From UHGV virus genome UHGV-0239440: a stretch of DNA of 25,919 nucleotides; one strand, given 5' to 3'. Positions 9,783 to 13,646 of this stretch are shown one piece after another (the stretch's first letter is position 1; each line of letters opens with the position of its first letter). The position numbers were made by a program, and so were the translations under genes. The stretch is from a virus. Under the pieces are notes generated by a model, which was not told where the DNA came from, did not search any database, and was given only the letters and a program-made list of their open reading frames with translations.

Positions 9783-9811
9783 TTAAAGAGTTCTTACGAG
9801 TATTCTTTAAA
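9783..9811 (+). repeat. AT-rich hairpin element with conserved GTTCTTACGAG loop, copy A
   Basis: TTAAAGA-GTTCTTACGAGTA-TTCTTTAA. Confidence 0.6.
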
Positions 9812-9815
9812 GGAG

Positions 9816-9835
9816 CAGAAGACCAAATACAGCAA
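9816..9835 (+). repeat. spacer motif CAGAAGACC-N5-CAGCAA, copy 3
   Basis: CAGAAGACC aaata CAGCAA. Confidence 0.7.
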
Positions 9836-9902
9836 GTTACTTAAAATTTCAAGCCAATTTAATTTTGAAAAATTTAAAACTTGGTCTGGCTCAACAAATT
9901 TA

Positions 9903-9922
9903 CAGAAGACCGTTTACAGCAA
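9903..9922 (+). repeat. spacer motif CAGAAGACC-N5-CAGCAA, copy 4
   Basis: CAGAAGACC gttta CAGCAA; preceded by AATTTA; lies 15 nt upstream of the permuted tRNA-like element. Confidence 0.7.
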
Positions 9923-9937
9923 ACTTTAAACAATCTA

Positions 9938-10011
9938 TTTCTCCGGTAAAGAAAAGGCGAAGGTTCGATTCCTTCACTCGGCAGATGTCGAGTTGGTGTA
10001 ATGGTAGCACT
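9938..10011 (+). ncRNA. circularly permuted tRNA-like element: tRNA positions 27-73 (anticodon arm, T-arm, 3-prime acceptor) followed by positions 1-26 (5-prime acceptor, D-arm)
   Basis: 9938-9954 anticodon arm TTTCT-CCGGTAA-AGAAA (anticodon GGT, C at position 33); 9959-9975 T-arm GAAGG-TTCGATT-CCTTC; 9976-9982 ACTCGGC; 3-nt linker GAT; 9987-9993 GTCGAGT pairs 7/7 (one G-U) with ACTCGGC; 9996-10010 D-arm GTGT-AATGGTA-GCAC. Confidence 0.5.
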
Positions 10012-10185
10012 TAAGATGATAAACAACGGTCTGGTAATTATCTTTGCAGTAGCTTATGTGGCTAATTATGTCGTCCCATGAGTGCCGATGAATTTCCTTA
10101 GCATGATTCTAGATTAGCTTAATAGGAAATGACTCTACAGACCCTTTAGCAAGGTCTGCGTAGGTTACTGCAAAGGTAATTTAAT

Positions 10186-10261
10186 GGAAGTGTAGCAGAA
10201 TGGTGATGCGGCAGACTTTTAATCTGACAGGCGATGGGTTCGAATCCCTCCACTTCTACCA
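10186..10261 (+). tRNA. tRNA-Lys (anticodon TTT)
   Basis: Acceptor GGAAGTG/CACTTCT (G1-U72 wobble); anticodon loop CTTTTAA; T-loop TTCGAAT; CCA encoded. Confidence 0.75.
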
Positions 10262-10265
10262 ATAT

Positions 10266-10342
10266 GGTTCAGTCGCAGATAAGGTAATGCAGGGGTCTCA
10301 TAAGCCCTATGAATGTGGGTTCAATTCCCATCTGAACCTCCA
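10266..10342 (+). tRNA. tRNA with CAT anticodon (Met or Ile2)
   Basis: Acceptor GGTTCAG/CTGAACC perfect; anticodon stem GGGGT/GCCCT loop CTCATAA; T-loop TTCAATT. Confidence 0.7.
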
Positions 10343-10358
10343 ATACGTTGGTGATATT

Positions 10359-10844
10359 ATGTTTTGTGCTAATAAAGATTGTGGCAACAAAGCCGTTAAA
10401 GGTGGGAAATATTGCTCACGCTCTTGCGCTGCAAAGGTAAACAACAAGAGTCATCCAAAAAGAAGACAAGAAGGTTCTTGTCATTCATGTGGAAAGCAAA
10501 CACCAAAATCAAGAAAGTATTGTGATGAATGTATTTCAAATGGTATTCTGAAACAATACAAAAACCCTGATGAAGAAAAGAAAGCGAAGTCACAACACGT
10601 TAAAAAGTCTCGTGACAAACTTAAGAGGGTTTTAGTTGATTACAAAGGTGGTTGTTGCTCAATTTGTGGATACAATAAGTGCATAAAGGCTTTAGAGTTT
10701 CACCACTTAGACCCCAATACAAAGGACTTCACAGTAGGACAAAAACACTTCTCTATAGAGGTAATGAAGTCTGAAGTTGATAAGTGTGTATTACTGTGTG
10801 CAAATTGCCACAGAGAGGTACACGAAGGGGTAACAATGCTGTGA
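10359..10844 (+). CDS. HNH endonuclease with N-terminal Cys-rich zinc-binding region (161 aa)
   Basis: C-terminal CSICGYNKCIKALEFHHLDPNTKDF...CVLLCANCHREVHEG is a classic HNH motif; N-terminal CxxxC/CxxC pairs; ORF track start at 10200 rejected because it runs through two tRNA genes; ATG at 10359 has a GGTGA RBS. Confidence 0.8.
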   Translation: MFCANKDCGNKAVKGGKYCSRSCAAKVNNKSHPKRRQEGSCHSCGKQTPKSRKYCDECISNGILKQYKNPDEEKKAKSQHVKKSRDKLKRVLVDYKGGCCSICGYNKCIKALEFHHLDPNTKDFTVGQKHFSIEVMKSEVDKCVLLCANCHREVHEGVTML

Positions 10845-10913
10845 AAGCACATATGGATGTGCATTCGGCTGATAACCGAAAGGCAGAAGGTTCGAATCCT
10901 TCTCACAGTACCA
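10838..10913 (+). tRNA. tRNA-Ile (anticodon GAT)
   Basis: Acceptor GCTGTGA/TCACAGT; D-stem GCAC/GTGC; anticodon stem TTCGG/CCGAA loop CTGATAA; 5-prime end overlaps last 7 nt of HNH ORF. Confidence 0.8.
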
Positions 10914-10928
10914 ATTTCAATAAAGTTG

Positions 10929-10957
10929 TTGACATTAACATGTGACCACTTTATAGT
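10929..10957 (+). promoter_or_regulatory. sigma70-type promoter inside tRNA island
   Basis: TTGACA (10929-10934), 17-nt spacer, TATAGT (10952-10957); AAAGTTG upstream as in other copies. Confidence 0.6.
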
Positions 10958-11124
10958 AACCTTAGTTTTCGTTGCGTAGCGTCTATTTTGCAAATTTAAA
11001 ATAAATGCAAACGACAATGTTTTTCTGGCAGTAGCTTGATAGGCTAAACACCAGTGAGGTCTTCCAATCCCTCATCAAAGAATTTGGCGTACTAGCCCAC
11101 GGTATGATTAATAAGGTGGGCATC

Positions 11125-11154
11125 TTTAAGGGTTTTTTAAGAGAGTCTTTAAAG
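11125..11154 (+). repeat. hairpin element, copy C (7 nt upstream of tRNA-Arg TCT)
   Basis: TTTAAGGGTTTTTTAAGAGAGTCTTTAAAG, homologous to copy B. Confidence 0.55.
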
Positions 11155-12226: not shown

Positions 12227-12321
12227 ATTCAGAGGTCAAGTGAAAGACCGCTGGTGTCAACTGAAGACCGTAACAAATTCCACGGAGTTGAGTTAGCGGC
12301 ACAACTTCAGACCTCTTTCAT

Positions 12322-12396
12322 ACTCGCTTAGTTTATATGGTAAAACATCACCATTACAAGATGAAGAAAAAGGTTCAAGTCCTTTAGTGAGTACCA
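12322..12396 (+). tRNA. tRNA-Val (anticodon TAC)
   Basis: Acceptor ACTCGCT/AGTGAGT; D-stem GTTT/AAAC; anticodon loop ATTACAA; T-arm AAAGG-TTCAAGT-CCTTT. Confidence 0.7.
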
Positions 12397-12397
12397 T

Positions 12398-12475
12398 GTT
12401 CCAGTATCCCAATTGGCAGAGGATGCAAGCTCAAACCTTGTATTAGTGACGGTTCGAATCCGTCTTGGAACACCA
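12398..12475 (+). tRNA. tRNA with anticodon CAA (leucine anticodon) but short variable loop
   Basis: Acceptor GTTCCAG/TTGGAAC; anticodon stem GCAAG/CTTGT loop CTCAAAC; T-arm GACGG-TTCGAAT-CCGTC; discriminator A; 78 nt. Confidence 0.55.
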
Positions 12476-12480
12476 ATTTT

Positions 12481-12556
12481 GCAGGATTAGTTCAAATGGA
12501 TAGAGCAACAGTCTACGAAGCTGTTAATAGGGGTTCGAATCCCTTATCCTGCGCCA
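12481..12556 (+). tRNA. tRNA-Arg (anticodon ACG)
   Basis: Acceptor GCAGGAT/ATCCTGC perfect; anticodon stem ACAGT/GCTGT loop CTACGAA; T-loop TTCGAAT. Confidence 0.8.
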
Positions 12557-12574
12557 GATAAGTAAGAGGGATTT

Positions 12575-12817
12575 ATGCAAACACTAATCGTCGTTGAACA
12601 TGAAAATTCCAATAGTATTGAGTTTGTAAGGGTTCCCACTATAGATACCCACATTTTCTTGAAAGTCGGATGGAGATGTGACCCAATAAAAGTAGAAAAT
12701 TTTATTGGTCATTACTTTGGTGGAAGACAACTTAAAAGCGTCAATTTTGAGACAATGTTACCAGAAAACTCAGAAACAAATAATAATGTTTATCTCCTTA
12801 CGAGGATTAGACAATGA
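12575..12817 (+). CDS. hypothetical protein (80 aa)
   Basis: ORF track; AAGAGGG RBS 5 nt upstream; ATGA overlap with next gene. Confidence 0.5.
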   Translation: MQTLIVVEHENSNSIEFVRVPTIDTHIFLKVGWRCDPIKVENFIGHYFGGRQLKSVNFETMLPENSETNNNVYLLTRIRQ

Positions 12818-13371
12818 GATATCTGAAGTATGCTTCATGGATTTTCTTAGCTTTGTTAGAGCCATTTGCAGCAATCTTAGCAGTTATCTTAGCACCCTTT
12901 GTAGTCCCATTCTACAGTGAGAAGAAAGGACATCTACCTTTTGGATTCAGATGGATGGAGACATATGACAACCCAATTGATGGTGATAAAGGTCATGTTG
13001 AACGATGGGCTAAGATTAGAAAGATTGGTAAGCTTGGTGTCTATATGCAGAGAGTCGGTTGGCTCTGGAGAAACAAAGCTTATAACTTCTCTTACCATGT
13101 GTTAGGAAGAGATGTAAAAGATGTTACTAAGTGGAAAGGTAATATCAATGTAAGTTCTAACCCTGAAGATAATCAGACAGGTTATCTCCTAATGTGGAAC
13201 AGTAATGCTTGGGGGTTATTCGCTTTTGTACCATCAATTAAAATCTTTGGTAAACAATTCTACTGGAGAATTTATGTTGGATGGAAACTTAAAAGTGTTG
13301 TCCCAGAAGAAAGAGCATTCTCAAGGGAAAGAGTTATGTTGGCATTCTTTATTCATCCACTAAGAAAGTAA
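12814..13371 (+). CDS. putative membrane protein (185 aa)
   Basis: ORF track; N-terminal hydrophobic segment WIFLALLEPFAAILAVILAPFVVPF; GAGGA RBS. Confidence 0.55.
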   Translation: MRYLKYASWIFLALLEPFAAILAVILAPFVVPFYSEKKGHLPFGFRWMETYDNPIDGDKGHVERWAKIRKIGKLGVYMQRVGWLWRNKAYNFSYHVLGRDVKDVTKWKGNINVSSNPEDNQTGYLLMWNSNAWGLFAFVPSIKIFGKQFYWRIYVGWKLKSVVPEERAFSRERVMLAFFIHPLRK

Positions 13372-13379
13372 AGATTTAA

Positions 13380-13455
13380 AGGGGATTAGTTTACAAGGTT
13401 AAAACCTCGGTCTTTGAAATCGAAGAAGTTGGTTCAATTCCAACATCCCCCGCCA
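13380..13455 (+). tRNA. tRNA-Gln (anticodon TTG)
   Basis: Unpaired 1-72 (A-C), anticodon stem TCGGT/ATCGA loop CTTTGAA, T-arm GTTGG-TTCAATT-CCAAC, discriminator G. Confidence 0.7.
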
Positions 13456-13457
13456 AT

Positions 13458-13536
13458 GCTCCATTACTCCAATTGGCAGAGAGGCCAGACTTAAAATCTG
13501 TGTTATGTATCGGTTCGAATCCGATATGGAGTACCA
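13458..13536 (+). tRNA. tRNA with anticodon TAA (leucine anticodon) but short variable loop
   Basis: Acceptor GCTCCAT/ATGGAGT; anticodon stem CAGA/TCTG loop CTTAAAA; T-arm ATCGG-TTCGAAT-CCGAT; discriminator A; 79 nt; D-arm nearly identical to 12398-12475. Confidence 0.55.
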
Positions 13537-13541
13537 AATTT

Positions 13542-13617
13542 AGCGGTATAGCATAACTGGCAATGCAGCAGTCTCTGAAGCTGTCTTATTAAGGTTCAAA
13601 TCCTTATGCCGCTGCCA
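13542..13617 (+). tRNA. tRNA-Gln (anticodon CTG)
   Basis: Acceptor AGCGGTA/TGCCGCT; D-stem GCAT/ATGC; anticodon stem GCAGT/GCTGT loop CTCTGAA; discriminator G. Confidence 0.7.
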
Positions 13618-13620
13618 CTT

Positions 13621-13646
13621 CTAAGGGTTCTTACGAGAGTCCTTAA
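13621..13646 (+). repeat. hairpin element, copy B (3 nt upstream of tRNA-His)
   Basis: CTAAGG-GTTCTTACGAGAGT-CCTTAA, stem TAAGG/CCTTA. Confidence 0.6.

Follow-up and report, generated by a model that had tools for sequence, protein, structure and literature searches.

Phage tRNA clusters are increasingly viewed as counter-defence and translation-tuning devices, and to our knowledge almost nothing is known outside T4 about how their precursors are cut. McClain in 1979, Pragai and Apirion in 1981, and Gurevitz and Apirion in 1983 are said to have found that RNase III cuts the T4 precursor a few nucleotides 5' of tRNA-Gln and that without the cut no tRNA-Gln is made, the last of these studies reportedly reporting the cut to be required for 5' maturation by RNase P in the case of T4 tRNA-Gln only. 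The participation of RNase III in T4 tRNA maturation is stated in a review (PMC4810235, citing McClain 1979; Gurevitz & Apirion 1983). We analysed a stretch of the virus genome UHGV-0239440 (25,919 nucleotides, 25.9 kb; hereafter the window), which represents a Felixounavirus (FelixO1-like myophage) 93-97% identical to its FelixO1-like relatives and carries 26 tRNA genes on the + strand at 9003-14731 (ARAGORN). Within this tRNA cluster we found three copies of an AU-rich hairpin that recurs in four phage families. The link between these families is new, as is the recognition that the upper stem of the hairpin, not its loop, is the conserved part. The three copies, and a fourth sequence that resembles them, are:

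9783..9810, + strand: hairpin A, UUAAAGAGUUCU-UACG-AGUAUUCUUUAA; 41.0 and 39.7 bits with the covariance models; 12 stacked positions with one U.U mismatch.
11122..11156, + strand: hairpin B, AUCUUUAAGGGUUUUU-UAA-GAGAGUCUUUAAAGAU; 16-bp stem rich in G.U pairs; 24.2 and 29.4 bits.
13620..13647, + strand: hairpin D; 10-bp stem (13622-13631/13636-13645) with a UACG tetraloop; 46.6 and 42.9 bits.
11785..11812, + strand: copy C, not a family member in the window; 8 nt before tRNA-Leu (UAG); no model match.

The two covariance models (R1 and R2) were built from the hairpin family itself, and the E-values of the three hits were at most 5e-4. Outside the family's FelixO1-like members, a corresponding hairpin was found in T4, on the minus strand at L266:4538-4567, where CAAGGGUUCUU-GUUA-GAGAGCCUUUG, followed by uuaauaau and UGGGAAU, stands just 5' of tRNA-Gln, the first tRNA of the cluster. 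It was the top R1 match in 8 kb of T4 (14.9 bits) and scored 26.1 bits with R2. On the tRNA strand it shows the arms AAGGGUUCU ... AGAG(U)CCUU-3', which need no indels to align with those of A, B and D. Its 5' arm is identical to that of the window copies and its 3' arm nearly so (AGAGCCUU vs AGAGUCCUU); it likewise lies on the tRNA-sense strand, 8-9 nt before a tRNA, and is followed by a similar AU-rich tail (UUAAUAAU vs AUUAAU). T4 and its relatives account for 558 records in which the hairpin is conserved, 8-9 nt ahead of whichever tRNA comes first in the cluster, Gln or Met; in Gelderlandvirus and Dhakavirus the variants precede tRNA-Met and have a 7-bp lower stem below an internal loop. 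The T4 leader hairpin, the closest known counterpart, is homologous, or at least closely similar, to the window hairpins. The systems differ in that T4 has one copy, which heads the cluster, and the window has three internal ones, with A and D away from the transcript start; in the T4 loop, GUUA, and two wobble positions that are shifted; and in that dependence on RNase III is documented for T4 only.

The earlier note on this DNA had described the element as a stem closing a conserved 14-nt loop and had argued from the conservation of that loop. This architecture proved wrong: on the + strand RNA, the supposed loop GUUCUUACGAGAGU pairs internally and folds as GGGUUCU-UACG-AGAGUCC, using U.G and G.U pairs. 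The argument falls with it, as it is the upper stem to which the conserved bases belong, and the actual apical loop is variable (UACG, CACG, UAUA, UGCG, UCCG, GUUA, UCCU, UAACAU and CCCUCA were seen). Folding of the + strand RNA gave continuous stems of 10 bp in D, 9+2 bp around the single U.U mismatch in A, and 16 bp in B. As a family, the hairpins have an AU-rich stem of 10-18 bp, with a GC content of 21-43% in the enteric-phage copies, and a variable loop mostly of the UNCG type. The conserved part is the upper stem, 5'-GGUUCU/AGAGYC-3' with U.G and G.U wobbles, while the lower stem covaries.

To quantify the covariation, we aligned 23 distinct variants from arm to arm over a 12-pair helix, trimming the loops of three T4-type sequences and of B to four bases for the alignment only. 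Base pairing was retained in 93.8% of the cells and 7/12 pairs changed on both sides. The covariation score was 0.494 in comparison with a shuffle mean of 0.247, and no shuffle out of 500 reached the observed value; as a control, sliding the partner by one column lowered the pairing to 62-64% or less. The lower seven pairs covary freely (for example, U-A/A-U/C-G/G-C at column 3 and G-C/A-U at column 7). The five upper pairs show wobble-compatible changes only, C replacing U only opposite G, and G.U interchanging with A-U or G-C; outside the 23-variant alignment, one Kuravirus copy has an upper-stem U-A to C-G swap. The predicted stability of the helix depends on the strand: hairpin B folds at -10.5 kcal/mol on the + strand vs -3.6 on the opposite strand, a Kuravirus copy at -17.4 vs -6.2 kcal/mol, and the G.U-rich copies are much weaker on the opposite strand. 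All copies are co-oriented with the surrounding genes. Because the pairs covary and the G.U pairs are strand-specific, we conclude that selection acts on the RNA helix of the transcribed strand. On the same grounds the wider proposal of the earlier note, a recognised and conserved RNA-level element linked to the tRNA precursor, is borne out.

Four copies, A to D, had been reported as sharing one pattern, and their coordinates and sequences agreed with the window. The covariance models relate A, B and D to each other and leave C as a look-alike. The reported distances of 7, 8 and 3 nt to the next tRNA were correct according to ARAGORN, although the letters of the copies had been mixed up: copies B, C and D have their last positions at 11154, 11812 and 13646, and the tRNAs that follow them (tRNA-Arg, tRNA-Leu(tag) and tRNA-His) begin at 11161, 11820 and 13649, respectively. 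The sequence GTTCTTACGAG occurs exactly in the window at 9790 and 13627 only; with up to two mismatches it was observed 16 times vs 5.96 expected, and none of 100 shuffles reached 16. Hairpin A folds at -9.2 kcal/mol alone and at -21.1 kcal/mol when the GC-rich hairpin upstream is included, and is conserved in Felixounavirus, Suspvirus and Mooglevirus with variants that preserve the pairs. Hairpin D is nearly invariant across Ounavirinae, its variants being G.U to A-U changes and a C.A to C-G change at the stem base. Hairpin B is orthologous, by alignment, to the canonical copy of Erwinia phage M7, and better-paired variants of it exist in other Felix-likes (for example, L140, -19.0 kcal/mol). 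Copy C was excluded from the family because it had no covariance-model match even at E<=10 and its fold (-2.0 kcal/mol, z = +1.33; -4.1 kcal/mol with flanks) was no better than those of shuffles. It occupies a position equivalent to that of B, with the same ...AAAGAUUUAAU tail, and its site is conserved among Felix-likes, but as a sequence that differs from the hairpin family; copy C is thus at best a decayed or replaced relative. The complete FelixO1 genome has the element in the tRNA region only, where it occupies the positions of A and D.

Conservation in related genomes was evident in all Ounavirinae examined and extended beyond them. Hairpins A and D are present in Felixounavirus, Suspvirus and Mooglevirus, and in Erwinia phage M7 (Kolesnikvirus) a canonical copy ends the region orthologous to gap B, the non-coding stretch before hairpin B, 7 nt before tRNA-Leu(CAA). 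A short BLAST search with copy D retrieved the same sequence outside Ounavirinae; a 14-mer scan of viral contigs was swamped by chance matches, and longer degenerate patterns succeeded. In Demerecviridae, the element was found in T5 and altogether in 516 records, T5 among them (Tequintavirus, Epseptimavirus, Sugarlandvirus), as a 17-18 bp version, GUAUUUUUAAGAGUUUU-UACG-AGAGUUCUUAAAAAUAC. Those phages' own, unrelated tRNA-Arg(UCU) usually follows it after 5-6 nt, and sometimes an open reading frame (ORF) does; one T5-like contig (L252) carries an additional copy, whose lower stem differs, 5 nt ahead of tRNA-Lys(CUU). Kuravirus podophages (phiEco32-like) carry up to three copies, none adjoining a tRNA, and a GC-rich viral contig (L013) has a copy with a fully GC lower stem. 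No match was found in 5,426 Escherichia coli genomes, and 185,579 bacterial and archaeal genomes gave chance-level matches only, plus one phage-contaminant contig. Among the flanking non-coding stretches, only gap B matched its Erwinia counterpart (74% over 205 nt); otherwise the hairpin alone is shared. In the window only the tRNAs passed the gathering thresholds of Rfam 15, and in permissive Rfam scans, which covered the window region together with the T5-like, Kuravirus and Erwinia loci, nothing matched at the hairpins. The strings TTCTTACGAGAG and UUCUUACGAGAG were not found in the searched paper texts, and no description of the element was found in Rfam or the literature searched.

The placement of the hairpins in the window involves the following neighbours:

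9760..9780, + strand: GC-rich hairpin directly 5' of hairpin A (by folding); terminator-like but without a U-tract.
10929..10957, + strand: sigma-70-type promoter TTGACA-N17-TATAGT (scan, 11/12 matches); the FelixO1 promoter "P45".
11161..11237, + strand: tRNA-Arg(UCU), the next after hairpin B (ARAGORN, Rfam).
13542..13617, + strand: tRNA-Gln(CUG) (ARAGORN); its 3' CCA lies 2-3 nt before hairpin D.
13649..13724, + strand: tRNA-His(GUG) (ARAGORN); its 5' end lies 1-3 nt after hairpin D.

The promoter scan placed host-type promoters at 8856, 8947 and 10929, the last of which was named P45 in the FelixO1 genome paper (PMC3185647) and drives the gap-B RNA, hairpin B and tRNA-Arg. Hairpin B closes gap B, which starts at this promoter, and stands 4 nt before tRNA-Arg(UCU). 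Hairpin D nearly fills the 31-nt spacer between tRNA-Gln and tRNA-His, the other spacers of the cluster being 1-7 nt. Hairpin A follows tRNA-Asp and the GC-rich hairpin and marks the boundary between the first tRNA sub-cluster and a 374-nt non-coding gap (gap A). The tandem of a GC hairpin and then an AU-rich hairpin was seen also at T5-like L252:8544 and at Kuravirus L135:4793 and L135:10125, and the GC hairpin at 9760-9780 could possibly serve in 3' protection of the upstream tRNA sub-cluster once A is cut. Across phages, the element stands 1-10 nt before a tRNA 5' end in six independent contexts (D before His, B before Arg, the Erwinia copy before Leu, T5 before Arg, a second T5-like copy before Lys, and T4 before Gln or Met), so that the identity of the downstream tRNA changes and the hairpin stays. 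A distance of at most 10 nt was found for B (4-7 nt), D (1-3 nt) and the Erwinia, T5 and L252 copies; hairpin A precedes gap A instead. The link to tRNA 5' ends that the earlier note had pointed out is therefore real in several contexts but not specific to tRNAs, as copies away from tRNAs exist.

We propose that the hairpin is an endonucleolytic punctuation signal in a polycistronic precursor of tRNAs and non-coding RNAs, the enzyme most likely being host RNase III, and we assign this reading a probability of about 0.5. In this scheme the hairpin would be transcribed within a long precursor from the host-type promoters, and a double-strand-specific endonuclease, most likely host RNase III, would cut both arms near the stem base. 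The cut would separate RNA modules, such as tRNA sub-clusters and the tmRNA-like and tRNA-like RNAs described below, and would leave a short leader on the downstream tRNA (Arg-UCU after B, His after D), whose 5' end RNase P would finish. The upstream RNA would keep a short trailer or, as at A, a protecting GC hairpin, and a double cut at D would leave 2-3 additional nucleotides on tRNA-Gln and 1-3 on tRNA-His. The segment that holds the gap-A tRNA-like and gap-B tmRNA-like RNAs is flanked by hairpins A and B, and this fits a punctuation role. The proposed logic is that of the RNase III sites of T7 (R0.3, R1.1 and others), hairpins between the units of a polycistronic phage transcript that are cut by the host enzyme and leave a 3' hairpin upstream. 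The stems of the T5-like copies (17-18 bp) and of SEA1 and CLB_P2 (9-10 bp, an internal loop and a 7-bp lower stem) would have the size and shape typical of RNase III substrates. The "precursor-processing guide" of the earlier note thus keeps a plausible role in the precursor, but "guide" is unfitting for what looks like a site of cleavage or punctuation.

Several observations weigh against this proposal. Cleavage, RNase III as the enzyme and its help to RNase P are all things that we infer, and the T4 cut is presumably in the leader hairpin, an assignment for which no confirmation was found in the literature searched. Hairpin A, all three Kuravirus copies and several T5-like copies adjoin non-coding RNAs or ORFs and not tRNAs. 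Shorter hairpins are cut less well by RNase III, and the T7 sites span some 20 bp or more and contain an internal loop, as against 10-12 bp in A and D. The RNase III dimer accommodates ~22 bp (PMC6212723), far more than the 10 bp of D or the 12 positions of A; B has 16 bp. The T7 sites also lack sequence or model similarity to the window hairpins: all ten were unlike the motif, the best R2 match being 11 bits (E = 2.5), and generic recognition by RNase III therefore leaves the sequence conservation of the upper stem unexplained. This stem is conserved even where the lower stems are unrelated (L013, L252, L135). A tentative idea, which we consider rather unlikely, is that the upper stem is a dedicated recognition module under selection in at least four unrelated enterobacterial phage families, and that its reading involves a factor or a mode of recognition not needed by generic RNase III substrates; it might time or order the maturation of tRNA, tmRNA-like and tRNA-like RNAs, or act as a mobile "punctuation cassette" passed between co-infecting phages.

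Uncut hairpins could instead act passively, blocking 3' exonucleases upstream or shielding the downstream 5' end from RNase E after cuts by RNase P or RNase E. Their location at module boundaries, beside RNase P sites, and their frequent pairing with a GC hairpin agree with this, as does the fact that at B and in Erwinia the hairpin ends a conserved non-coding RNA, where an RNase P cut would leave it 3'-terminal. Yet the stems are AU-rich and weak (-8 to -13 kcal/mol), poor barriers beside the neighbouring GC hairpins; sequence conservation, as seen for the upper stem in four phage families, is nothing that a barrier would require; and D lies between two tRNAs that need trimming, not protection. 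We consider a purely passive role unlikely. We are equally doubtful that a sequence-specific protein other than RNase III, of host or phage, reads GGUUCU/AGAGYC and regulates the expression or maturation of the tRNA cluster. The near-invariance of the upper 5 bp alongside a replaced lower stem (GC-rich in L013, GAAGAAA/UUCUUC in L252) and the lack of the motif in T7 RNase III sites would suit such a protein, but no candidate for it was found, Kuravirus and FelixO1 share no neighbouring gene, and the motif, lacking in the genomes of E. coli and other bacteria, is not used by any host RNA. The count of Ro-like proteins in Escherichia phages (120) equals the count of Felix-likes and suggests that this protein is absent from the T5-like and Kuravirus phages.

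A role at the level of DNA, as a recombination hot spot, a mobile mini-cassette or a site associated with homing endonucleases that shuffles tRNA and ORF modules, would account for near-identical stretches of 22-28 nt with unrelated flanks in unrelated phage families. It would also suit the varied 3' content among close relatives (tRNA-Arg in T5, an ORF and then tRNA-Arg in S132, other ORFs in Sugarlandvirus, L240 and L241) and the HNH endonuclease genes scattered in these regions. A precedent is the promoter-early stem-loop (PeSL) of T4-type phages, a short conserved intergenic stem-loop at module junctions common to divergent phages; Arbiol et al. in 2010 reportedly described it as coupled to an early promoter and argued for a function in DNA recombination. 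In contrast to PeSL, no promoter directly follows A, B or D in the window (the sites being 8856, 8947 and 10929), and the variation points to an RNA helix, preserving its pairs including G.U, which would be a C.A mismatch on the other strand. The orientation, furthermore, always follows transcription, and shuffling could be a secondary consequence of the element and not its function; we regard a DNA-level function as very unlikely. Least probable of all is an intrinsic terminator, as which copy D is annotated in the record of Citrobacter phage Michonne (NC_028247.1). Apart from that annotation and the hairpin form, little agrees: the stem is AU-rich with no U-tract, the tails being AAAUGUGG, AAAGAUUAAU and AAAGGAGC, a terminator scan called no site at A, B or D, and D sits 2-3 nt from the tRNAs on either side, inside a co-oriented tRNA run with no promoter after it.

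Some further candidates were rejected. A phage-specific promoter was discarded as the motif is absent elsewhere in the 86-kb FelixO1 genome and no -10/-35 logic fits, and a host-derived element as the scans of E. coli and of bacterial and archaeal genomes gave no real match. The Ro-like DUF2828 protein encoded upstream was dismissed as the binding partner, being apparently not present in the hairpin-bearing T5-like and Kuravirus phages. Mimicry of a T-arm, anticodon arm or minihelix does not fit in loop sizes and register, and a general RNase III-site consensus fails on the T7 sites. The sarcin-ricin loop of 23S rRNA (AGUACGAGAGGACC) shares the octamer UACGAGAG with D and the T5 and Kuravirus copies. 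However, its GAGA-tetraloop register gives only 2 bp, the bulged-G motif (AGUA/GAA) is absent, and the octamer is not kept by A (GAGU), B (UAAGAGAG) or the T4-type loops; we judged the match a coincidence.

The stretches next to the hairpins contain RNAs of their own. Gap B (10929-11121) has a tmRNA-like messenger domain with a tag-like frame at 11007-11042 and the tag ANDNVFLAVA followed by two stops. The message has an A-rich leader and reads UUUAAAAUAAAU GCA AAC GAC AAU GUU UUU CUG GCA GUA GCU UGA UAG, the stop codons lying in a hairpin loop. The tag is conserved, with synonymous changes, across Felixounavirus, Suspvirus, Mooglevirus and Kolesnikvirus (ANDAQFLAVA in Erwinia M7), and gap B scored only 7-14 bits against the Rfam tmRNA model. 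ARAGORN called no tmRNA in the window; in Moogle it called a permuted tmRNA (L144:2883-3631) that joins the gap-A and gap-B elements, a call mentioned in the Moogle genome announcement (PMC4319497). Gap A holds, at 9907-10032, a circularly permuted tRNA-like element composed of a T-arm (9959-9975), a loop-closed acceptor stem (9976-9993), a D-arm-like segment and an enclosing helix (9907-9914/10025-10032). The acceptor hairpin covaries between phages (ACUCGGC/GUCGAGU, ACACG/CGUGU, ACCCUUC/GAAGGGU); GCCA follows it in Moogle, the window copy has no CCA, and position 3:70 is not G.U. The element may be a YrlA-type Y RNA or may form one half, the tRNA-like one, of a two-piece tmRNA. A direct repeat, GCAGAAGACCAAAUACAGCAAG / ACAGAAGACCGUUUACAGCAAA, occurs at 9814-9835, just after hairpin A, and again at 9902-9923, at the 5' strand of the enclosing helix.

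Other differences between relatives concern the surroundings of hairpin B. In some Felix-likes (L143:3630-3689, L144 and L146, equivalent to window 11100-11160) its place is taken by a different, longer hairpin, UAAAGGGUA...UACCCUUUA (-16.7 kcal/mol), directly before tRNA-Arg(UCU), and a similar hairpin, AAAGGGUA...UACCCUUU, overlaps the promoter 8856 at window 8848-8879. The gap between tRNA-Arg(UCU) and tRNA-Ser (11238-11475) contains a weak tRNA-like match at 11382-11456 (21 bits), and at the equivalent place typing phage 15 has tRNA-Trp(cca) and a small ORF (L146:3915-4404); close relatives vary in the genes that the cluster holds. An ORF on the + strand at 10200-10844, between tRNA-Met and tRNA-Ile, corresponds to FelixO1 ORF44, annotated as an HNH endonuclease; its 214-aa reading has no Pfam match and begins inside tRNA-Lys, so that translation probably starts further downstream. 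The ORF at 7422-8837 (+ strand, 471 aa), immediately 5' of the tRNA cluster, matches DUF2828 and DUF7788. Its homologues, some annotated as Ro-like RNA-binding or von Willebrand factor A (vWFA) proteins, were found in 710 phage records, many of them tRNA-rich (mycobacteriophages and phages of Listeria, Staphylococcus, Campylobacter and Vibrio). In T5-like phages (L123:2533-2998 and L231:710-1505), stretches of 470-800 nt without an annotated gene lie upstream of the T5-type hairpin; the last ~90 nt (GUCACCUUGACUUAAACUGGAAGAUA...) are conserved across Epseptimavirus, Tequintavirus and Sugarlandvirus, and ARAGORN calls an odd tRNA inside (SeC/tca or Ser/act).

One hairpin common to T4-, T5-, FelixO1- and phiEco32-like phages provides a concrete and testable processing signal, relevant to hundreds of sequenced therapeutic and typing phages. 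For annotators it is a feature that can be labelled; one record now calls it a terminator, and the majority leave the hairpin unmarked. The old T4 biochemistry probably generalises, and a narrower question is raised: why the sequence of the upper stem, beyond its structure, is conserved.

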